From the NCBI RefSeq assembly GCF_041886205.1, contig NZ_CP169029.1: 64,000 nt of DNA, one strand, 5' to 3'. This document shows positions 1,612 to 58,505 of this stretch, in pieces; the first letter of the stretch is position 1, and every line of letters begins with the position of its first letter. The translations under genes and the position numbers were made by a program. A model generated the notes under the pieces. The model saw only the letters and a list, made by a program, of their open reading frames with translations, was not told the DNA's origin and made no database searches. The stretch comes from Escherichia coli (lineage in GTDB: Bacteria; Pseudomonadota; Gammaproteobacteria; Enterobacterales; Enterobacteriaceae).

Positions 1612-1980
1612 GACCGGGACTCCCAATGCTTAAAATATCGGACAGTTCGGTGGGCACACAGAAACAAATTGGGTTTCAGACCATTAAACAGCCTGACTCA
1701 GCGCGACGGGAAAAATTGAGGTCGCTGACAACCGCTAAGGCTATCAGCAAAAAGGGATAGCCTTAGGAGTTGATCCTGGATGACAGGATAGTGAGCCAGT
1801 ATCTACTGGGTGTGTCCAAGGCGAATGTCCTCTTAGAGTGATCGTGCGCGCATGTTACGCCAGCAAAATTTTGCCGTCAACACGCAACAGAACACCACAG
1901 AACAATAGTTGAACTTCGCGCTTTTTGGTACTCGTCAAGGTCGCTAACAGGATAAAAAAATCCCACATCCAGGACCTATA

Positions 1981-2745
1981 ATGGCGCATCGGCTACTCAT
2001 TGGTAAAGGAATGATCACCTTGAATCTCAAACGGATTTTTCTCACCCTCACCTTACTTCCCTTGTTTGCTGTTGCCGCTGATGATTGCGCACTCTCAGAT
2101 CCGACGCTGACCGTACAGGCGTATACCGTTAATCCTCAAACAGAGCGGGTGAAAATGTACTGGCAAAAAGCCAATGGCGAAGCGTGGGGAACGTTACATG
2201 CTCTGCTGGCGGATATGAATAGTCAGGGTCAGGTGCAGATGGCGATGAACGGCGGCATCTATGATGAAAGCTATGCGCCGCTCGGTTTGTACATCGAAAA
2301 CGGTCAGCAGAAGGTGGCGTTAAATCTCGCTTCAGGTGAAGGGAATTTCTTTATTCGTCCTGGCGGCGTGTTTTATGTCGCGGGAGATAAAGTCGGCATC
2401 GTTCGTCTGGATGCCTTTAAAGCCAGTAAAGAGATTCAGTTTGCGGTGCAGTCAGGGCCAATGTTGATGGAAAACGGTGTAATTAATCCGCGTATTCATC
2501 CCAACGTCGCCTCACGCAAAATTCGTAACGGTGTTGGGATTAATAAACATGGGAACGCCGTGTTTTTGTTGAGCCAGCAGGCAACAAATTTTTATGATTT
2601 TTCCTGTTATGCCAAAGCGAAACTGAACGTTGAGCAGCTGCTTTATCTTGATGGCACGATTTCACATATGTATATGAAAGGCGGGGCAATCCCGTGGCAA
2701 CGCTATCCTTTTGTCACCATGATTTCCGTCGAGCGGAAAGGTTAG
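1981..2745 (+). CDS. yigE: Exported protein YigE (DUF2233), signal peptide present
   Basis: ORF track 254 aa with N-terminal signal-like hydrophobic segment; located between corA and uvrD. Confidence 0.8.
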   Translation: MAHRLLIGKGMITLNLKRIFLTLTLLPLFAVAADDCALSDPTLTVQAYTVNPQTERVKMYWQKANGEAWGTLHALLADMNSQGQVQMAMNGGIYDESYAPLGLYIENGQQKVALNLASGEGNFFIRPGGVFYVAGDKVGIVRLDAFKASKEIQFAVQSGPMLMENGVINPRIHPNVASRKIRNGVGINKHGNAVFLLSQQATNFYDFSCYAKAKLNVEQLLYLDGTISHMYMKGGAIPWQRYPFVTMISVERKG

Positions 2746-8703: not shown

Positions 8704-10182
8704 ATGCACTATCGCAATGTGGTTTGTTTGTTGTCTTGTTCGTTGTTTTTATCGTCGGCATGGGGATGTCGGCTTGATGAGCCGGAACATAATATTTACC
8801 AGAAACAGGGAAAAGGCGTGGTGTACCTGCGCCCTTATAAAGAAACAAATCTTTCTCTACCTGACGTGAATTACAAGAGTTTGCGTCGTTTACCTAATTT
8901 ATTAATAGACGCAACAACACAAGATGAATGGAATAAAGAACCACCTCTGACTGATCTAACAACTGACAACCTCTATGAGGGCGCACAAGCCTGGTATCCC
9001 CATTACTCCTGGCATAGCGATGGTCGCTATATCCTCTACGCGGGTGAAGTAGTGCAAAATCCTCACGACGCACCACCCGTCGATATCGCCTCATTCAAGG
9101 CATGGGGAGATTTTGCCGCAGATAAACACAGTCTCTATTTTGAAGGCAAGCGCACCGATAACAATGGCGGGGGAAATCGCTTAGATATCAAAACACTGCA
9201 TCAGGTGGAATTCCGGCCTCCCTGGGATCCTGACTTACTGGGGCTGATATTACGTGACGCTAATTTCTTGTATATCAATGGGCATCGCCTCGCAGATCCC
9301 GATAGTTTCCGTGTGCTGGCACAAAAGTCATGGGATCAACGAGGAAAGTTTTCTACCGCGTTTAATCCCTGTGTGGCTATGCCATTTGGCCCATGGGATA
9401 CCCTGGCTCGTACACGGACCAAAATCCTGATCAACGGCGAACAGCTTGATGCCGACCCGGACACTTTTTCCGTCGTGCGCTGGATGCCCGGCTCACTCTT
9501 GACCTGGCGTGATAAAAACGGGCTGCAGCGTAAAGTCCTCGACAAGGAAAATCTGGCGTGGGATGAGGATTTAACAAAGCACTGTCTGGATTTTTCTCTG
9601 CTGGAAAAGAAAGTGTTCTGGCGTCGGGGGCCTGACTGTAAACAGGAAGAATTACCGGGACTCGATCCGGAACAGTTTCACCCCATCAGTGATGCTGTCG
9701 CACAGTATCAGGACTCGCTTTATACCATCATCGAAACAGAGTCTGGTGACCGCAAGCTGGAGATCGTGAAACTTGATGATCCTAATCTTATTATCAACAA
9801 ACGTTTCAACGCCGGGAAACGCCACGGCTATTTACTTACGCGTGCCGAAGGGTGGCCAAACCATTCCGGTTTACACGTGTTTGAATCTGATGGACCGCTG
9901 ATCTTACTGGATAACCGCTCTCCGGATGAACGCGAAGCCCATCTTAATGACCATCCCTTTTTGCGCAGATGGTATGCCCGCGATAACCGCTACGTTTACA
10001 GCTTTGATGGCGCGCAGCTCTGGCGATACCGCACCGCGGATCCGAAACAAGTTCGCTTAATCTGGAAGGAACAACATTCGGGATATGGCTATGGCGTAAA
10101 TTACAAAACGGGATATCTGGACGGAAAAATTACCGATGACGGCGAATTTATTCCTGCCCCGCGCAATGAGGCGACAAAATGA
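8704..10182 (+). CDS. Exported DKNYY-like repeat protein (paralog A), function unknown; start could be 8674 (GTG) or 8704 (ATG)
   Basis: ORF track 502 aa; N-terminal signal/lipoprotein-like segment (…LFLSSAWGC); repeated blocks such as VDIASFKAWGDFAADKHSLYF, RLADPDSF, DADPDTFSVV, ARDNRYVYSFDG; collinear similarity to the downstream ORF. Confidence 0.7.
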   Translation: MHYRNVVCLLSCSLFLSSAWGCRLDEPEHNIYQKQGKGVVYLRPYKETNLSLPDVNYKSLRRLPNLLIDATTQDEWNKEPPLTDLTTDNLYEGAQAWYPHYSWHSDGRYILYAGEVVQNPHDAPPVDIASFKAWGDFAADKHSLYFEGKRTDNNGGGNRLDIKTLHQVEFRPPWDPDLLGLILRDANFLYINGHRLADPDSFRVLAQKSWDQRGKFSTAFNPCVAMPFGPWDTLARTRTKILINGEQLDADPDTFSVVRWMPGSLLTWRDKNGLQRKVLDKENLAWDEDLTKHCLDFSLLEKKVFWRRGPDCKQEELPGLDPEQFHPISDAVAQYQDSLYTIIETESGDRKLEIVKLDDPNLIINKRFNAGKRHGYLLTRAEGWPNHSGLHVFESDGPLILLDNRSPDEREAHLNDHPFLRRWYARDNRYVYSFDGAQLWRYRTADPKQVRLIWKEQHSGYGYGVNYKTGYLDGKITDDGEFIPAPRNEATK

Positions 10183-11501
10183 ATGGTCAAATAATCACTG
10201 TTGCACTCATCCTGTTGGGGCACATATTTCTGACGCCTGCTGTACAGGCCATAGGGTTCGACTATTACAATGATCACGGTGTTATGTCTTACGGTAAAGG
10301 TTATGGGGAGGATGAGAAAATCATTGCCCAATTTCCGAAGATGAACAGAGCCGATTTGCGCCTTGTGACAAATATATCCGGGGAGCGGGAGTTGGTGGAA
10401 GGCTATATACCCACCGATGAAATAAGCATAAAAAATGAGGAATACCACTGGGTGACAGACGGCCGCGTTATTCTCTGGCGTGGCAAAATCGTTAGCAATC
10501 CACCGGGAACACCCACTGTCGATATTGCCAGCTTTCAGGCTATGGGCCGCTTCGCGGTCGATAAATATAGCCTCTATTTTGACGGACAGCGCACCGAAAG
10601 TAATAGCGGCGCGTCACGTGTTGATCTGGCGACACTAAAAGCTATCGAAGGTAACTCTACCACGCTGGTGGATAGTAAAAATCTCTATTTGTCCGGTCGA
10701 CGTCAGGGGAGCAGCAGTAATGTTACTGTATTAGAAAAAAGATGGTGGGGTATTAATCCACGTCTTATGAGTGTAAACAGAAATTTGTATTCCAATGATC
10801 TGCTTATCCGCAGTGGGCAGAATATTTATTTAAATGGCGTTCACCTTACGGCGAATGCAGACTCATTTGAGATAATTCGCTGGAGACCTCATTCACTGCT
10901 GGTTTTTCGCGACAATAAGGGTCTGCATCGTTATCCCTTTGGTCAATTATCAGGCAAGGCAATACCCGTAGATGATGACGTCTCTTTTGAAGTAGGGGAA
11001 AGTCGCGTTCGCTGGCGTAAACAGCTCACGTCCGACCGTCAGTGGAGCAAGTGGATAGACCTACCAGGTATTGAACCTGAACAATTCCATCTGATTACTG
11101 GCAATATTGCGCAGTATAAAGATCGTCTGTATGTAACAAAATTATCGACTTTTGGTGAAGACCAGCTTGAAATAATTCTGCTGGATTCGCCAGACCTGGT
11201 CATTGATAACTCATTTAATGGCGGCAAACAACATGTTTACTTTATCCGCCAATTACGGTCAAAGAGCGTGCAAATTATTCCAACTAACGGCCCGCTAATT
11301 AAAAACGATCGCTTCGCTTATGACGATCGCAATGTTTATACATGGACCGATACAGAGGTAAGGATTACGCCCTCCCCCTGCCCGGCGAAAACACACGTCA
11401 GAGAAGAGAATGTGCGTGAACTTCACAACAGAGACATTATTATTCCGTTGACGGATGAATCATGCCAGAACGCAGCAGACGAGCAAACTTTGAAGCCCTG
11501 A
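10179..11501 (+). CDS. Exported DKNYY-like repeat protein (paralog B), function unknown
   Basis: ORF track 440 aa; signal peptide MNGQIITVALILLGHIFLTPAVQA; start ATG overlaps upstream stop (ATGA); blocks VDIASFQAMGRFAVDKYSLYF, TANADSFEIIRW, DDRNVYTWTD paralogous to the upstream ORF; AT-rich. Confidence 0.7.
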   Translation: MNGQIITVALILLGHIFLTPAVQAIGFDYYNDHGVMSYGKGYGEDEKIIAQFPKMNRADLRLVTNISGERELVEGYIPTDEISIKNEEYHWVTDGRVILWRGKIVSNPPGTPTVDIASFQAMGRFAVDKYSLYFDGQRTESNSGASRVDLATLKAIEGNSTTLVDSKNLYLSGRRQGSSSNVTVLEKRWWGINPRLMSVNRNLYSNDLLIRSGQNIYLNGVHLTANADSFEIIRWRPHSLLVFRDNKGLHRYPFGQLSGKAIPVDDDVSFEVGESRVRWRKQLTSDRQWSKWIDLPGIEPEQFHLITGNIAQYKDRLYVTKLSTFGEDQLEIILLDSPDLVIDNSFNGGKQHVYFIRQLRSKSVQIIPTNGPLIKNDRFAYDDRNVYTWTDTEVRITPSPCPAKTHVREENVRELHNRDIIIPLTDESCQNAADEQTLKP

Positions 11502-11908: not shown

Positions 11909-14455
11909 TCACGAAAAATACTGCTGTAATAGCGGCGTGTCATGATCCTGATTGGCAGGCGGCATGTTACCGATAGATTTTGTGCGGAACGGAATCACCT
12001 GTTCACGACCATCAACCTTCACAATCTGATAGAACTGCGGCAGGTTGAAGTTGATGAAGCTTGAGCCGTAGGTGAAGCGGTCGTGCGATGACGAGTAGAA
12101 GCGACTGACGTCACGCACCAGCTCCTCTTTGCTGCCTTCGCAGTGGTGATACACCTCAACCCGGTTGCTTTCGTCGAGAATGTAGATATTAAAGCCATTC
12201 TCATCTTGCGTTTCTTCGAAAAAGAACTGGATGATCCCTTCGCTGGCAAAGCCGTCCACCACCGCCGGTAATTTGACGTGATTGGTTTCAACCTGCACTG
12301 ACAGGCCGTGCAGTTTGTTATGCGAAATAGCGCCATAAAACTCGATGGCGTTTTCCAGTTTCTGTACCGATACATTCAGGCGTTCGAAGAACAACCCCCA
12401 GGTTTGACCAGAAACGCGCAGCGCCTTGAAGCGTCCGGTTTCCTGGCGGGTGCTGGAAAGACGCAGTTCAATACACTCAGAAACCAGTTGCTGCACGCGA
12501 GTACGGATTAAGCCGCGCAGATGCTGGCTATAACAGAAGACTTCCACGCTATCTGGCGGTGCGGCGTCCTGATGCATTTTGCCGAGAATAGTTTTCAGGG
12601 CTTCGATCATCGATTGCTCGCCGTTGAAGTGCAGCGTACGCACTTCGTTCCACGAGTTGCGGTACAGCAGGTCAACGCTACCTACCAGGCAATTTTGATT
12701 CTCGCCAAAGCTGAAGACATCCAGCTTACGGAAATCAAAATGCACCACCTGATTGCGGAACGCAGCTGTCGGGTCATATTCCAGGTTAACGATAATCGCC
12801 AGATGGCGGATCTCACACGGGCTGTAGAGCGCCTTCGGTGTCGGTGCAGGTAAGCGCAGCGGGAAATGGTGCGACACGTCGGCGACCATCTCCTGCAACT
12901 TAGGCAAATCGACAATGCCGTTACCTTTAATATACAAGCGGGTGCGCGAGGTCAGCAGGCCGTTAAACCATGCCCACGCCACCAGTTTATTCAGGTAACG
13001 GTTATATTCCAGCGGCTGATGGCTGATGATCGACTCAATATTTGGCGCGCGGTTATACAGATACCAACCTGAACGGTTAGCCCGGCCCGGCGGCACATAA
13101 ATAAAGGTCAGATTCGGTTCCGAGAGATCGGGTGAAATCTGCGGGTTTACCAGAGTTACTTTACCTGGCAATGCTTCAAACGCGGCATACAGCTTACGCG
13201 TCAGCACACCGATATCCTGCGGGCTGGCGGAAACGCTAAGGTTATTGCGACGCGCAAAGCGGATCAGATTGCGGTAGCTCTGCATCATCGCGTCGAGCAA
13301 CTCGTTGTGCGCCTCACGCACCTGATCAATCTTCCAGTTAGCGCGGTTATCGAGCATTGCCAGACGAGCATCGTCCCAACCCCACTCGCTCACTAACTGG
13401 CTCAACACTGCGCGACGCCAGCCTACGCAGGCGCGTTCACGGCTGAGCTTTTCGCACACTTTTAAATAGAAGCAGCGACGTACTAAATCCAGACGGGTGA
13501 AATCTTCAATCGCCGTCAGGTATTCAGTAACACGCTCCAGCATCATGCAGTATGGATCGAGACCAAACGATACAATCTCGCCGTCGTGCAAACGCTGTTT
13601 GATATCTTTCGCCAGCAGACGTGGGTTCGGGTATTCCCAGGAATAGGCTTCCAGCAGCAGTGTTTTCAGCACCGCTTTGTATGGGGAATCGATACTCTTG
13701 TAGAGCTGCCAAAGGCTGGCACCAAAGTACTCTTCAGCAGAAAGCGAGCTTAAGCCACCGAGATCCAGCCATTCATTTGGCGTCAGCACGCCCTGCGCGT
13801 AAAGCGTCATCACATAGTCATCGTAATGCTCTTCTTCGTCGCACGGCACCATATTCCACAGAATACGCTTACCGGCGAGACGCACGGCGGTACGATAAAA
13901 TTCGTCAAGCAGCAGTATATGCTGGGTGGAGCCACAATCTTCGCCCCCCAGGCTGCCGCTTTCATTATGACGGAAGCGATTTTCATCAATCAGGAAGAAG
14001 CTGACTTCCACACCCAGCGAGGCGGCCCAGCTTTCCAGCAGGCTGCATTTACGTTGTAGTAACTGGCGCTCTTCGCTATCGAGCCAGGATTGATGACAGA
14101 CCCAGATATCCAGGTCAGAGGAACAACTTTGCCCTACGGACGAGGTGCTGCCCATGGTGTATACACCAGTAATTGGAAGCTCACCTTTCGGCGGATCCTG
14201 TACTGACATTCCACGATACAGTTCAAGCTCGTTCAGGTAGTGGCGTTGAGTTTCATCAGGCGTGTAAAGGCAAATGCCTTTGGGAACGTTACCATCAAGG
14301 TAACCCGGCATTAGCGGATGGTGATAGTGCAACAATGTCGGCAGTAGACTGTAGACCTGTTGGAATGCAGGCCCCATAGCAGCAAGCGCGCGATCCACAC
14401 GCAATTGATTTATGGCATCCAGTCTCTGTTTCAGAGTCTCAATATAGAGGTACAA
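11909..14455 (-). CDS. cyaA: Adenylate cyclase CyaA (class I), TTG start
   Basis: 848 aa; N-terminus (M)[11 protein letters not shown] encoded from TTG codon at 14453-14455. Confidence 0.95.
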
Positions 14456-14841
14456 GACGTATCGCCTGATTTGCTACCCGTCATGACTGTGATTCCGCCA
14501 ACATCAACGGTAACACGCGGCATTCGGGATATTTCGTATGTCAAAGGTAACCGTTACCACTTTTCGCGCCTGGTTTTTTTAGTTTCACGACGAAAAAATG
14601 GTCTAAAACGTGATCAATTTAACACCTTGCTGATTGACCGTAAAGAAAGATGCGCTACATACAAGTGTAGCACCGTTTATTCTCTGTAAATTCCTTATTA
14701 CGACGGCGTGAAACGCCTGTCAGGATCCACTGCCAGACCTCATTTTACGGTTTGCGCAGGCGTCTACGTTTCACCACAACACTGACATCACTCTGGCAAG
14801 GATGTTAGGATGGACCACGGATGATAATGACGGTAACAAGC

Positions 14842-16541: not shown

Positions 16542-17741
16542 ATGACGGAACAAGAAAAAACCTCCGCCGTGGTTGAAGAGACCAGGGAGGCCGTGGACAC
16601 CACGTCACAACCTGTCGCAACAGAAAAAAAGAGTAAGAACAATACCGCATTGATTCTCAGCGCGGTGGCTATCGCTATTGCTCTGGCGGCGGGCGTCGGT
16701 TTGTATGGCTGGGGTAAACAACAGGCCGTCAATCAGACCGCCACCAGCGATGCCCTGGCTAACCAACTGACGGCATTGCAAAAAGCCCAGGAGAACCAAA
16801 AAGCCGAGCTGGAAGGCATTATCAAGCAACAGGCTACGCAGCTTGAACAGGCGAATCGTCAGCAAGAAACGCTGGCAAAACAGTTGTATGAAGTCCAACA
16901 AAAGGTCGCCACCATTTCCGGCAGCGATGCTAAAACCTGGCTGCTGGCTCAGGCCGATTTTCTGGTGAAACTCGCCGGACGGAAGCTGTGGAGCGATCAG
17001 GACGTCACGACCGCTGCAGCGTTGCTGAAAAGTGCAGACGCCAGCCTGGCGGATATGAATGACCCGAGTCTGATTACCATTCGTCGGGCAATTACCGATG
17101 ATATCGCCAGCCTTTCTGCAGTATCGCAGGTGGATTATGACGGCATCATCCTTAAGCTTAATCAGCTTTCAAATCAGGTAGATAACCTGCGTCTGGCCGA
17201 TAATGACAGCGATGGTTCGCCGATGGATTCCGACGGTGAAGAGCTTTCCAGTTCCATCAGCGAATGGCGTATCAATTTGCAAAAAAGCTGGCAGAACTTT
17301 ATGGACAACTTCATTACGATTCGCCGTCGTGATGACACCGCCGTACCGCTGTTAGCGCCAAATCAGGATATCTATCTGCGCGAAAATATTCGCTCTCGCC
17401 TGCTGGTCGCTGCACAAGCTGTACCGCGTCATCAGGAAGAGACTTATCGCCAGGCGCTGGAGAACGTCTCCACCTGGGTACGTGCTTACTACGATACTGA
17501 TGATGCCACCACCAAAGCATTCCTCGACGAGGTGGACCAGTTAAGCCAGCAAAATATCTCGATGGATCTTCCGGAAACCCTGCAAAGCCAGGCGATGCTG
17601 GAAAAACTGATGCAGACTCGCGTGCGTAACCTGCTGGCACAACCGGCAGCGGAGACAACGGAAGCTAAACCTGCACCTGCACCTGCACCTGCACCTGCAC
17701 CGCAAGCTGATACTCCGGCAGCCGCGCCGCAAGGAGAATAA
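16542..17741 (+). CDS. hemX: HemX membrane protein with C-terminal Pro-Ala repeat
   Basis: 399 aa; N-terminal TM segment; coiled-coil Gln-rich region; C-terminal [13 protein letters not shown]. Confidence 0.9.
17670..17699 (+). repeat. Perfect hexanucleotide tandem repeat (CCTGCA)x5 encoding (Pro-Ala)5 inside hemX
   Basis: Read directly: cct gca repeated five times in frame. Confidence 0.9.
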
Positions 17742-30491: not shown

Positions 30492-31166
30492 TCACCTGTA
30501 TAACCAGTACGCGGTGCTTTCTACATTCGCACCACTTTGTATGTATCGTTTAAGCGCGGCGGTGTTGCCCATTTGGGTCGCCACCCGCAAAGTTGTTTTA
30601 CCGCGAGCATACGCCCAGTTTAGCGCCGTTTGCATCAGCTCAGCACCTACACCGCGTCCAGCCAGCAGGCCAATTCGCGCATCTGTCGCATTGAGTTCCC
30701 GTAAAGAGACATAACCGCGAATACCGCCGGACACCGCACGTAAAATCAGACATTGATGATCAAAGGTGCCGCGCACGGCATTTTCAATCCACTGTGCATA
30801 AAAGCGTCTGCTGGCGTCAGGCGCATACCACGGCGCACGAAAACGGCTTTGCGCAAATGCGGCGCTGGCTAACTGACGTAATGCGGGAATATCGGTCTCT
30901 TGTGCCACTACAGCACCACTATCACTGACATTGTTCACGGGTAGTGCCAAATCAACTTCACCTTCTACCAGGGAGAATCCCAGCTGTTGCAGGGCATCCA
31001 GTTCACCCGTATTTGATGCCGCAATTTTGGCCTGCACCCGTGACCACGGCGCTAACACGTCTGGCGTCAGGAGCGGTGCTTCAGACGTAATGCGCACGAT
31101 GGCGCTGTTAACACCAAAGAAGGCGTTTTCCCAGGTTAGTGGCTCAATACTGGCGCGGACGGGCAC
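30492..31166 (-). CDS. wecD: TDP-fucosamine acetyltransferase WecD (RffC), GNAT fold
   Basis: 224 aa; overlaps rffH start; position in cluster. Confidence 0.8.
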
Positions 31167-33111: not shown

Positions 33112-34373
33112 CAGCGCCAGACTCCTTTGGCATCGACGACATACTGCTGATGGACATTGTCGCCATTGATAACTTTGAACTGACTATGATCGACCAGCAT
33201 CACCAGCACGTCTGCCGTTGCCAGCGCCTCGTCAAGCTGCGCCAGAGTACAAAGCCCGGTCAGTTTTTTCGGCAACTGGTGGATGTTAGGCTCAACAACC
33301 AGCGTTTCGCCGCTGTGCCACTGGGCGATCAGTTCAGCGATTTCCATCGCCGGGCTTTCGCGCAGGTCATCAATATTCGGTTTAAACGCCAGACCAAAGC
33401 AGGCGATTTTCAGTTCACTGGCGCGTTTATCGGTAGCAGCAAGGCAGTCGGCAACCGCCGCTTTCACCTGATCGATAACCCAGAACGGTTTGTGATCGTT
33501 AACTTCGCGCGCGGTACGGATAAGCCGCGCCTGCTGGGGGTTCTGTGCCACGATAAACCACGGATCAACAGCAATGCAGTGACCGCCCACGCCAGGGCCA
33601 GGCTGAAGAATATTAACGCGAGGGTGACGATTCGCCAGGCGAATCAGTTCCCAGACGTTAATCCCCTGATCGGCACAAATCAGCGACAATTCATTAGCAA
33701 AAGCGATATTCACATCGCGGAAGCTGTTTTCGGTGAGCTTACACATTTCCGCCGTCCGCGAGTTAGTGACGACACACTCACCTTCGAGGAAAATTTTGTA
33801 CAGTTCGCTGGCGCGGGTCGAACAAACCGGCGTCATACCACCAATCACGCGATCGTTTTTAATCAGCTCGACCATAACCTGGCCCGGTAACACGCGTTCC
33901 GGGCAGTAAGCAATGTTGACGTCCGCCTGCTCGCCCACCTGCTGTGGGAAAGTGAGATCCGGACGCATCTCTGCTAACCATTCTGCCATCTTCTCGGTTG
34001 ACCCCACCGGCGAGGTGGATTCAAGGATCACCAGCGCGCCTTTTTTCAGCACTGGCGCAATGGAGCGAGCAGCCGATTCAACGTAGGTCATATCTGGCTC
34101 ATGATCGCCTTTAAACGGCGTGGGTACAGCAATCAGCCAGGCATCCGCTTCAACTGGCGTCGTGCTCGCTCGTAAAAAACCGCCTTCTACGGCAGTTTTT
34201 ACTACGCTCGCCAAATCAGGCTCGACGATATGGATTTCGCCACGATTGATGGTATCAACCGCGTGTTGGTTGATATCGACACCAATCACCTGTTTTTGCC
34301 GTGAGGCAAACGCAGCTGCTGTAGGCAGCCCGATGTAACCCAGTCCGATAACAGAAATGGTCGCAAAACTCAT
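33111..34373 (-). CDS. wecC: UDP-ManNAc dehydrogenase WecC (RffD)
   Basis: 420 aa; N-terminal [15 protein letters not shown]-binding motif of UDP-sugar dehydrogenases. Confidence 0.95.
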
Positions 34374-35500
34374 AGTGATATCCGATTATTTTTTAACGCT
34401 TCCAGAATGCGAGAGCATGCCTGACCATCACCATACGGGTTATGGGCGCGGCTCATAGCTTGATATTCGTTTTCGTCTTTTAAAAGACGCGTCACTTCCT
34501 CGACAATTCGCTGCTTATCCGTGCCTACCAGACGCACCGTACCCGCCGTCACCGCTTCCGGACGCTCAGTGGTATCGCGCATCACCAGCACCGGTTTCCC
34601 CAGCGAAGGCGCTTCTTCCTGAATGCCGCCTGAGTCGGTCAAAATCAGCCAGGCGTGGTTCATCAGCCAGACAAACGGTAAATACTCCTGGGGATCGATC
34701 AGAATGACATTTTTCACATGCCCCAGAATGCGATTGACCGGCTCTCTGACGTTCGGGTTGAGATGCATCGGATAGACAATCTGGATGTCCTGGTGCGTGG
34801 TGGCGATGTCTGCCAGCGCATGGCAGATTTCTTCAAAGCCACGACCGAAGCTCTCACGCCTGTGACCGGTCACCAGAATCATCTTTTTATCGGGGTCGAT
34901 AAACGGGTAATTTGCCGCCAGTTCTGAACGCAGCGTATCGCTGCTCATCACCTGGTCACGCACCCATAACAGTGCATCGATGACAGTATTACCAGTAATG
35001 AAGATTCGGCTATCCGCAACGTTTTCACGCAGCAAGTTTTGCCGGGAAGTTTCGGTTGGAGAGAAGTGATACATCGCCAGATGCCCGGTCAATGTACGGT
35101 TAGCCTCTTCCGGCCACGGCGAATAGAGATCGCCCGTGCGCAGACCAGCCTCAACGTGACCAACAGGAATACGCTGATAAAACGCCGCCAGGCTGGTTGC
35201 CAGCGTCGTCGTCGTATCGCCGTGAACCAGCACGACGTCTGGTTTGAACTCGGCAAGAATAGGTTTTAGCCCTTCCAGAATCCGACAGGTTATCTCTGTC
35301 AGGCCCTGTCCTGGCTGCATTATGTTGAGATCGTAGTCAGGTACAATGGAAAAGAGTTTCAGCACCTGATCGAGCATCTCCCGATGCTGCGCAGTGACGC
35401 AAACTTTAGCCTCAAAAAAAGGATCTTTTGCCAACGCATGCACCAACGGCGCCATCTTGATGGCTTCCGGGCGCGTACCAAATACAGTCAGTACTTTCAC
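34370..35500 (-). CDS. wecB: UDP-GlcNAc 2-epimerase WecB (RffE), GTG start
   Basis: Native N-terminus (M)[19 protein letters not shown] starts at a GTG codon; 376 aa. Confidence 0.9.
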
Positions 35501-35555
35501 ATCGATTCTCTTCGAATAAGCGGCGAGCGCCTTTGCGCTCACCGCAGCAGTGTTG

Positions 35556-36613: not shown

Positions 36614-37717
36614 TTATTTGGTTAAATTGGGGCTGCCACCACGATTTCTACGCAGTCTGCGTTTTATGCGCTTAATAAAGCGAGCAACTTTCCAGGCACG
36701 CTTAATGCAATATCCATAGAGGAAGAATGCTAGCAAAAAGAGCACCAGCATGACCCACTCCGGGACAAAATGAGAATATTCTGCCAGCACGCCAATGGAA
36801 GCGAGCAGTGCTGCGGCAAGGGTAATCAGCACAAACGCCTGACGGGAAGTAAACCCGGCACGCATGATCAAATGGTGAATATGCTGACGGTCAGGAGAGA
36901 ATGGGCTCATGCCTTTACGCAGGCGACGGTACATAATCGCCACCATATCCATTAGCGGAATGGCGATTATCCACAAAGCGGTAACCGGGCTGATGGGATG
37001 GGTTTTGCCCTGGGTCGTTTCGAGCAGGATCCAGATAACGGTAAAACCAATCAGCGTACTGCCTGCATCACCCATAAAGACTTTGTAGCGGCGACCCAGG
37101 ATACCAAGGTTAAGCATGATGTATGGCAGGATGGCGGCGATCATCGCAAAGCACCAGATTGCGAGGCTGGTTTGCCCGTCGAACCACAAAATCATACCGA
37201 TTGCTGCAAACGAGACGCAGGACAACCCGCCCAGCAAGCCATCAATGCCATCAACCATGTTGAACGCATTAATGGCCGCCCAGACGGCAAATAGCGTCAG
37301 GAAGTAACCAAACGGTCCGAGCACCATCTCCCAGGAGCCAAAGATATAACCCAGGCTACTGAGATAAAGCTTGCCGAACACCATCATAACAATGCCAACA
37401 GCGGCCTGTATGGTGGCACGGATTTTTACGCTGATATCAAAACGGTCATCCAGCGCGCCAATGAAAACAAGCACACCGGCACAAGCGAGATAGAGAGATG
37501 CATGCGGAATATAGTAATCGACAATTCCGAACGTGAAGCAAATCCCTGCGTAAACCGAAATACCCCCAACGAGTGGTATCAACCCCTGGTGACGTTTGCG
37601 GAAGTTTGGTTTATCCACTAAACCGACTTTTTTTGCCACCTTACGGGCAAAAAACAGAAACAGTGTCGTGAATAAAAAAATACTGATGAGATCAGTACTC
37701 ACTGTCAGTAAATTCAC
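36614..37717 (-). CDS. wecA: UDP-GlcNAc:undecaprenyl-phosphate GlcNAc-1-P transferase WecA (Rfe)
   Basis: 367 aa polytopic membrane protein, MraY/WecA family; immediately downstream of rho. Confidence 0.95.
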   Translation of the reverse strand: MNLLTVSTDLISIFLFTTLFLFFARKVAKKVGLVDKPNFRKRHQGLIPLVGGISVYAGICFTFGIVDYYIPHASLYLACAGVLVFIGALDDRFDISVKIRATIQAAVGIVMMVFGKLYLSSLGYIFGSWEMVLGPFGYFLTLFAVWAAINAFNMVDGIDGLLGGLSCVSFAAIGMILWFDGQTSLAIWCFAMIAAILPYIMLNLGILGRRYKVFMGDAGSTLIGFTVIWILLETTQGKTHPISPVTALWIIAIPLMDMVAIMYRRLRKGMSPFSPDRQHIHHLIMRAGFTSRQAFVLITLAAALLASIGVLAEYSHFVPEWVMLVLFLLAFFLYGYCIKRAWKVARFIKRIKRRLRRNRGGSPNLTK

Positions 37718-57665: not shown

Positions 57666-58505
57666 GTGGATACGGAATTGTTAAAAACTTTCCTGGAAGT
57701 TAGCCGAACGCGTCACTTTGGTCGAGCGGCTGAATCGCTCTATCTGACCCAGTCAGCCGTGAGCTTTCGAATCAGACAACTGGAAAATCAACTGGGTGTG
57801 AATCTTTTCACCCGCCACAGAAACAATATCCGTTTAACCGCTGCTGGTGAAAAACTACTGCCTTATGCAGAAACGCTCATGAGCACCTGGCAGGCCGCCC
57901 GCAAGGAGGTGGCGCATACCTCACGACATAACGAGTTTTCTATCGGTGCCAGCGCCTCATTGTGGGAATGTATGCTTAATCAGTGGCTGGGACGTTTGTA
58001 TCAAAATCAGGATGCCCATACAGGCTTACAGTTCGAAGCGCGAATTGCCCAACGGCAGTCTCTGGTAAAACAGCTGCATGAACGCCAGCTTGATCTTCTT
58101 ATTACCACTGAAGCGCCCAAAATGGACGAATTTAGTAGTCAGTTGCTGGGATATTTCACTTTAGCGCTTTATACCAGTGCCCCTTCCAAACTAAAGGGAG
58201 ATCTTAACTATCTGCGACTGGAGTGGGGGCCAGATTTTCAACAGCATGAGGCAGGTTTGATCTGTGCTGACGAAGTTCCCATTCTGACAACCAGTTCTGC
58301 TGAACTGGCACAGCAACAGATTGCGATGCTTAATGGTTGCACCTGGCTACCCGTCAGCTGGGCGCGTAAAAAAGGCGGCCTGCATACTGTTGTTGATAGC
58401 ACAACACTTTCACGACCGCTTTATGCCATATGGCTGCAAAATAGCGATAAAAATGCGTTGATTCGCGATCTATTGAAAATTAACGTGCTGGATGAAGTGT
58501 ATTAA
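57666..58505 (+). CDS. hdfR: LysR-type transcriptional regulator HdfR
   Basis: 279 aa; N-terminal LysR HTH; divergent from maoP. Confidence 0.85.

Follow-up and report, generated by a model that had tools for sequence, protein, structure and literature searches.

The start of cyaA, the adenylate cyclase gene of Escherichia coli, is a long-described case of initiation at UUG (Roy et al. 1983; Reddy, Peterkofsky and McKenney 1985). Synthesis from UUG, GUG, and AUG start codons in this gene stands in the ratio 1:2:6 (Reddy et al. 1985, cited in PMC5499595), and the UUG is reportedly conserved in Enterobacterales as well as other gammaproteobacteria (PMC5499595). Two further described systems are relevant here. 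IlvY is an autoregulated LysR-type protein whose gene is divergent from ilvC (Wek and Hatfield 1986, 1988; Rhee et al. 1998, 1999). The AUGUG/GUGUG sites collected by Kohl et al. 2022 (PMC9841429) include wecB, which appears in their Table 2 among the atGTG-starting genes with no Shine-Dalgarno (SD) sequence of 4 nucleotides (nt) or more. All three genes are found in the 64,000-nt stretch of E. coli DNA analysed here (contig NZ_CP169029.1 of assembly GCF_041886205.1, called the window), in which cyaA and ilvY begin with TTG and wecB begins with GTG. All three starts are already annotated, and they are very probably ordinary examples of canonical non-AUG initiation in bacteria.

Compared with the described systems, cyaA in the window is the same gene with the same codon and shows no difference; its product is a class I adenylate cyclase with a conserved UUG start. 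The ilvY gene likewise has the known start position and both known operators (O1 and O2), but it differs from K-12 in having TTG and three linked spacer substitutions instead of GTG, and it also has T for G at position -6, a rare change. The wecB start resembles the sites of Kohl et al. in its AUGUGA sequence, in the A at coding position 4, and in the absence of a strong SD. Beyond their catalogue, the present analysis adds that the AUG/UUG-UGA is conserved in 54/56 Enterobacteriaceae species. The AUU start of infC, autoregulated through initiation factor 3 (IF3), is similar as a non-AUG start, but the likeness is an analogy only: no trans-acting discrimination mechanism is known for these starts or indicated in the window, the codons are UUG and GUG and not the IF3-discriminated AUU, AUC, or AUA, and IF3 treats GUG and UUG as canonical (PMC5499595).

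Start positions and annotation

At 14453-14455 the plus strand has CAA, so that cyaA, on the minus strand, begins with TTG; the open reading frame (ORF) that starts there has 848 amino acids (aa; 11909..14455, minus) and is supported by PGAP (the NCBI annotation pipeline) and by Pfam. At 35498-35500 the plus strand has CAC, the reverse complement of the GTG with which the WecB frame of 376 aa begins (34370..35500, minus). IlvY, of 297 aa, is encoded on the plus strand (47811..48704), and its first codon there is TTG (47811-47813). An earlier sequence-only reading of the window had named these three codons. Its positions are borne out by the sequence, by the ORF extents, and by the PGAP and K-12 annotation, although it omitted the strand of the two minus-strand genes.

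The feature was already known, as all three starts are present in every current annotation. A 2-kb query around the cyaA start matched 5425/5426 complete E. coli genomes, and the nearest complete genomes (wlxctx60, LHM10-1, CP52E) are 99.9% identical. In the PGAP annotation of near-identical strains and in the curated K-12 record, cyaA, wecB, and ilvY start at the same positions as here. The PGAP start calls for the three genes were right in all annotated records read (K-12 and ten other strains).

In each of the three genes the GUG or UUG codon is found at the 5' end of a conserved frame, and coding-type conservation begins at that codon. Annotation, cross-species conservation, and domain boundaries together support the claim that the native N-termini lie at non-ATG codons, while the interpretation which the sequence-only reading built on this claim is partly supported. 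The three genes serve as a calibration, in that comparative data (the upstream stop, the onset of codon periodicity, and the domain boundaries) are enough to fix their starts.

In an analysis of the ribosome-binding sites, whose spacing the sequence-only reading had suggested as a check, an SD-like element is present 5-10 nt upstream of each codon. The ilvY element is ordinary (GAGGG, 47798..47802, plus; 8 nt 5' of the TTG), with an anti-SD duplex energy of -6.1 kcal/mol, near the window median of -5.85. The elements of the other two genes are weak, both at -2.9 kcal/mol. In cyaA the element is AGG, 9 nt 5' of the TTG (14465..14467, minus), and in wecB it is AAGAG, found within the conserved leader block GAAGAGAAUCGAU directly 5' of the start (35501..35513, minus). 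At all three genes the initiator fMet-tRNA would be expected to decode the UUG or GUG a few nt 3' of the SD-like element, and each protein would begin with Met at the annotated position.

The cyaA start

The cyaA open frame starts at the TTG, with no in-frame alternative 5' of it. Among E. coli genomes, the 41-nt stretch centred on this codon is identical in 5421/5426, and the 400 nt upstream of the gene differ from K-12 by one base. A block in the leader (CAGGCGAnACGUC) is conserved in Enterobacterales.

The DNA of protein-search matches was used to compare the start with those of 11 orthologues. TTG is the homologous start in ten of them: Salmonella, Serratia, three other Enterobacterales, Vibrio ponticus, Photobacterium sanctipauli, Aeromonas veronii, and two gammaproteobacteria at 48-49% identity. 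The N-terminus of CyaA aligns across these ten. The only orthologue with ATG is a Pseudomonas sequence whose N-terminal extension is non-homologous. Some automated calls of cyaA orthologues run too far upstream (e.g. P0010 and P0034), which shows that start mis-calls do occur. The protein contains the Pfam domains Adenyl_cycl_N and Adenylate_cycl (E-values 1e-82 and 2e-258), and position 2 of the Adenyl_cycl_N profile falls on CyaA residue 5.

The TTG of cyaA is a documented expression brake and has been a textbook case since 1985. According to the published experiments, the deeply conserved UUG and the weak SD together hold adenylate cyclase synthesis low.

A 17-codon upstream ORF (14431-14484, minus) overlaps the cyaA start. 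Its ATG is out of frame with cyaA, 29 nt 5' of the TTG, and its SD (-4.8 kcal/mol) is stronger than that of cyaA itself (-2.9). In Salmonella this ATG is in frame with cyaA (10 codons upstream), and in Serratia it is absent.

The ilvY start and its variation

For ilvY and wecB, 80 Enterobacteriaceae loci spanning both genes were collected from one GppA-query scan of species-representative genomes. The ilvY start could be aligned at the same position in 61 species, most of which have an in-frame stop 5-7 codons 5' of it. Downstream of the start, conservation at codon positions 1/2/3 is 0.99/0.98/0.87. Upstream it is flat (0.72-0.78), in wecB as well as in ilvY. IlvY is composed of the HTH_1 and LysR_substrate domains, and position 1 of the HTH_1 profile falls on residue 3 of the protein.

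The region between ilvY and ilvC contains matches to the published operator sequences (O2, 47739-47759; O1, 47770-47790), which mark the divergent promoter region (47739..47790, plus). O1 is described as having its centre at +17 relative to the start of ilvY transcription, and O2 as overlapping the ilvY -10 and -35 boxes (PMC5002191). On this published map, transcription of ilvY would start near 47764. The nearest upstream in-frame ATG (47727..47729, plus), 28 codons 5' of the start, is found upstream of O2 and of the transcription start so placed; it would therefore lie outside the ilvY transcript and is a decoy. Since this ATG is upstream, a first-ATG rule would lengthen IlvY and not shorten it. 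The sequence-only reading had warned that gene callers which use the first ATG would misplace all three starts. In principle this is correct for cyaA (loss of 26 residues) and wecB (loss of 15), but in ilvY the error would go in the opposite direction, and in practice PGAP is correct.

While the position of the ilvY start is constant, its codon is not. Of the 61 species, 48 have GTG at the homologous codon, 12 have ATG (Kosakonia, Phytobacter, and Pluralibacter among them), and one, E. albertii, has TTG. Variation is also found within E. coli, where the TTG allele is present in 3364/5426 genomes (~62%) and the GTG allele in 1854/5426 (~34%). These counts were made using 41-nt queries in which each 28-nt seed was forced to include the codon. 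The window's own 41-mer at the ilvY start matched just five genomes because of the G-to-T polymorphism at position -6, which is common to only 5/5426 genomes.

As read from sampled genomes, the GTG haplotype (...GAGGGCTGTCCCT GTG) is that of K-12 and O157:H7, and the other is ...GAGGGCTGCGCCA TTG. In the start region (47798-47813), GCTGCGCCA-TTG corresponds to GCTGTCCCT-GTG, with four differences within 8 nt. One of these is in the codon and the remaining three are in the 5-nt stretch directly 5' of it.

TTG is thus right for the sequence of the window, but it is a strain allele and not the reference state. As TTG and GTG alternate within E. coli and ATG is found in 12/61 species, the specific codon is probably under at most loose selection. 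The position would be fixed while the codon drifts among GUG, UUG, and AUG, with the window carrying the commoner, UUG haplotype of the two in E. coli. Negative autoregulation of ilvY may buffer differences in translation efficiency.

The wecB start

WecB (UDP-GlcNAc 2-epimerase, Pfam Epimerase_2) is a metabolic enzyme. Across Enterobacteriaceae the homologous start codon is GTG in 56/56 species, and the 41-mer at the GTG is present in 5424/5426 E. coli genomes. In about 25/56 species an in-frame stop is found 4-6 codons 5' of the GTG with no start codon between them, which leaves these species no possible start but the GTG. Right after the GTG, codon positions 1/2/3 are conserved at 0.98/1.00/0.70. 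When residues 1-40 of WecB are aligned with solved UDP-GlcNAc 2-epimerases, the match begins at residue 1-2 and takes in the N-termini of 16 distinct sequences.

The GUG is overlapped by AUGUGA (35497..35502, minus), that is, an out-of-frame AUG followed by a UGA stop, with A at coding position 4. Among the 56 species the motif is ATGTGA in 46, TTGTGA in 8, and ACGTGA in 2. No species departs from the A at coding position 4 or from AAGAGA in the leader. wecB is an enzyme gene of the enterobacterial common antigen (ECA) operon in which an invariant GUG, a weak SD, and the AUGUGA context occur together. Starts of this kind form a described class in which the overlapping AUG-UGA can compete with the GUG or feed reinitiation at it, as it may do in wecB. 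The family-wide conservation of this AUGUGA and the ~62:34 TTG:GTG dimorphism of ilvY (5426 E. coli genomes) are the only facts here that are mildly new.

A GC-rich hairpin, GCGGTGAGCGC-AAA-GGCGCTCGCCGC (minus strand, 35520-35545), lies in the gap from the wzzE stop to the wecB start and lacks a T-run.

Non-ATG starts across the window and the regulator rule

With annotation transferred to the window, 52 coding genes start with ATG in 45 cases, GTG in 4 (wecB, wecA, rffC, hdfR), and TTG in 3 (cyaA, ilvY, ysgD). The non-ATG share is 13.5% (7/52). In the E. coli genome as a whole, non-ATG starts make up roughly 17%, and with this baseline the binomial probability of seven or more among 52 is 0.80. 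The window therefore has no enrichment of non-ATG starts and contains no more than chance gives. Annotated UUG starts number 81 in about 4300 E. coli genes (PMC4909307), and against that baseline the three TTG starts of the window give P = 0.075.

The sequence-only reading had listed three of the seven non-ATG starts and missed the other four. Two of these belong to enzyme genes and were placed by annotation transfer and K-12: wecA (GTG, 37715..37717, minus) and rffC (GTG, 31164..31166, minus). The third, hdfR (GTG, 57666..57668, plus; annotation transfer, Pfam, and K-12), encodes a LysR-type regulator. The fourth, ysgD (TTG, 1817..1819, minus; PGAP annotation), encodes an 18-aa small protein which has been seen as a tagged protein (bioRxiv 10.1101/511675).

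These counts bear on the rule proposed in the sequence-only reading, which is that weak start codons were selected because the genes are regulators needed at a low level. In favour of such a rule, the TTG of cyaA is kept across gammaproteobacterial orders and lowers expression measurably; ilvY is without ATG in 49/61 species and in all the E. coli alleles that were read; and hdfR, the second LysR-type gene in the window, starts with GTG. However, WecB is an enzyme, and the enzyme genes wecA and rffC use GTG too, while rho, a global regulator in the same window, starts with ATG. The lack of enrichment is a further point against the rule. The ATG of 12 species and the alternation of TTG and GTG in E. 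coli mean that no specific weak codon is required in ilvY. The abundant proteins EF-Tu (tufA) and HU-beta (hupB) also start with GUG (PMC5499595), and because these genes are highly expressed, a general weak-start rule is undermined. Overall the rule seems somewhat unlikely.

As for its parts, the description of the three as regulatory genes suits IlvY, and also CyaA as a signalling enzyme, but not WecB. Low-level translation is upheld for cyaA only, where it was determined experimentally. In ilvY the codon is not fixed, and in the case of wecB the premise fails. The corrections to the sequence-only reading come down to three: WecB is no regulator, the TTG of ilvY is a strain allele (GTG in K-12, and GTG or ATG in other genera), and the misleading ATG of ilvY is upstream and not downstream.

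Alternative modes of initiation

Several points weigh against the account of three ordinary, annotated starts. The supplements of TRAINSPOTTER N-terminomics, tetracycline ribosome profiling, and Salmonella riboproteogenomics contain no entries for CyaA, IlvY, or WecB. The comparison of cyaA orthologues relied on fragmentary or truncated gene calls, although their 5' regions were intact. The transcription start of ilvY is second-hand, coming from PMC5002191 as a summary of Wek and Hatfield 1988, and a simple consensus promoter scan of the ilvY region found nothing. Consensus promoter scans of the cyaA, wecB, and ilvY leaders were uninformative.

The possible reinitiation at wecB can be stated more fully. 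The GUG would be invariant as a part of AUGUGA, with ribosomes picking the AUG, stopping at the UGA, and reinitiating on the GUG, which would set the output of WecB relative to the upstream wzzE. The motif is present in the window and NUGUGA with AUG or UUG is found in 54/56 species, with the invariant A at position 4. In the work that lists wecB as atGTG without an SD of at least 4 nt, termination-reinitiation dependent on RF2 (release factor 2) was shown with AUGUGA reporters and for the native narQ site (PMC9841429). However, the evidence there for wecB itself is a catalogue entry and the reinitiation experiments were on other sites. In addition, no position in the block is less conserved than the base that creates the AUG (U in 8 species, and ACG in 2), and a conserved Lys codon, of which the A at position 4 is the first base, could by itself account for that A. 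This explanation is doubtful.

Two more specific proposals may be considered together. The linked changes in ilvY could be compensatory and set a lineage-specific level of IlvY translation and ilvC inducibility, or the AUGUGA of wecB could be a working start-stop reinitiation switch which tunes the synthesis of ECA precursor. That one or the other of these holds is a decidedly long shot.

It could also be argued that translation starts at a nearby ATG and that the non-ATG codons are an annotation convention. In-frame ATGs do exist (cyaA Met27, wecB Met16, ilvY Met25, and ilvY 47727), and the supplements searched contain no N-terminal data on the three proteins. However, the downstream ATGs would remove 22/60 HTH_1 positions from IlvY, the first ~22 Adenyl_cycl_N positions from CyaA, and the conserved N-terminus of WecB. 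A start at CyaA Met27 would truncate the N-terminal cyclase domain, since the domain begins at residue 5. A start at WecB Met16 would delete conserved structure, since residues 1-40 match solved epimerase N-termini. Coding-type conservation starts at the annotated codons, and SD support at the alternative ATGs is poor (+0.6 to -3.5 kcal/mol). The ATG at 47727 is upstream of the ilvY promoter elements, and in most species it is not available because the frame is closed by a stop 5-7 codons 5' of the start. In cyaA, mutation of the UUG alters expression (PMC5499595). Initiation at a nearby ATG is close to refuted.

Dual initiation giving two isoforms (wecB from GTG 35542 and 35500, or ilvY from TTG 47796 and 47811) is suggested by in-frame alternative start codons within the open frames upstream, the longest wecB ORF extending to GTG 35542, but the conservation data effectively refute it: coding-type conservation is missing 5' of the annotated starts, and the upstream alternatives are absent or stop-interrupted in most species (GTG 35542 is missing in most). 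In addition, neither codon has an SD (+1.2 to +1.3 kcal/mol, with +1.3 for GTG 35542), and GTG 35542 is found inside an arm of the wzzE-wecB intergenic hairpin.

Other features of the window

The clearest probable mis-called start in the window is in yigE, a gene absent from the sequence-only reading. The probable true start is a TTG at 2020..2022 (plus), 39 nt 3' of the annotated ATG at 1981. A supplement of tetracycline ribosome profiling contains the entry 'yigE TTG 39' with the N-terminus MNLKRIFL, and transcription of yigE begins between the ATG and the downstream TTG (both PMC4909307). The ATG at 1981 is thus probably an annotation error, and its correction would add a fourth TTG start to the window.

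The window corresponds to the 3.94-4.00 Mb region of K-12 in reversed orientation. From the rarD side, its gene order includes corA, uvrD, xerC, dapF, cyaY, cyaA, hemCDXY, aslAB, the wec/rff cluster, rho, trxA, rhlB, gppA, rep, ilvC, ilvY, ilvADEMG, and rrnC. Between lptM and cyaY (8704-11501) the window carries two genes, one for a hypothetical protein of 492 aa and one for a DKNYY-family protein of 440 aa. As the only gene of K-12 at this place is yzcX, the segment is a strain-variable insertion. Two differences from strain 6EVA were also seen: hemX (16542-17741) shows a 6-nt in-frame length difference, and wecC, which is frameshifted in 6EVA, is intact in the window.

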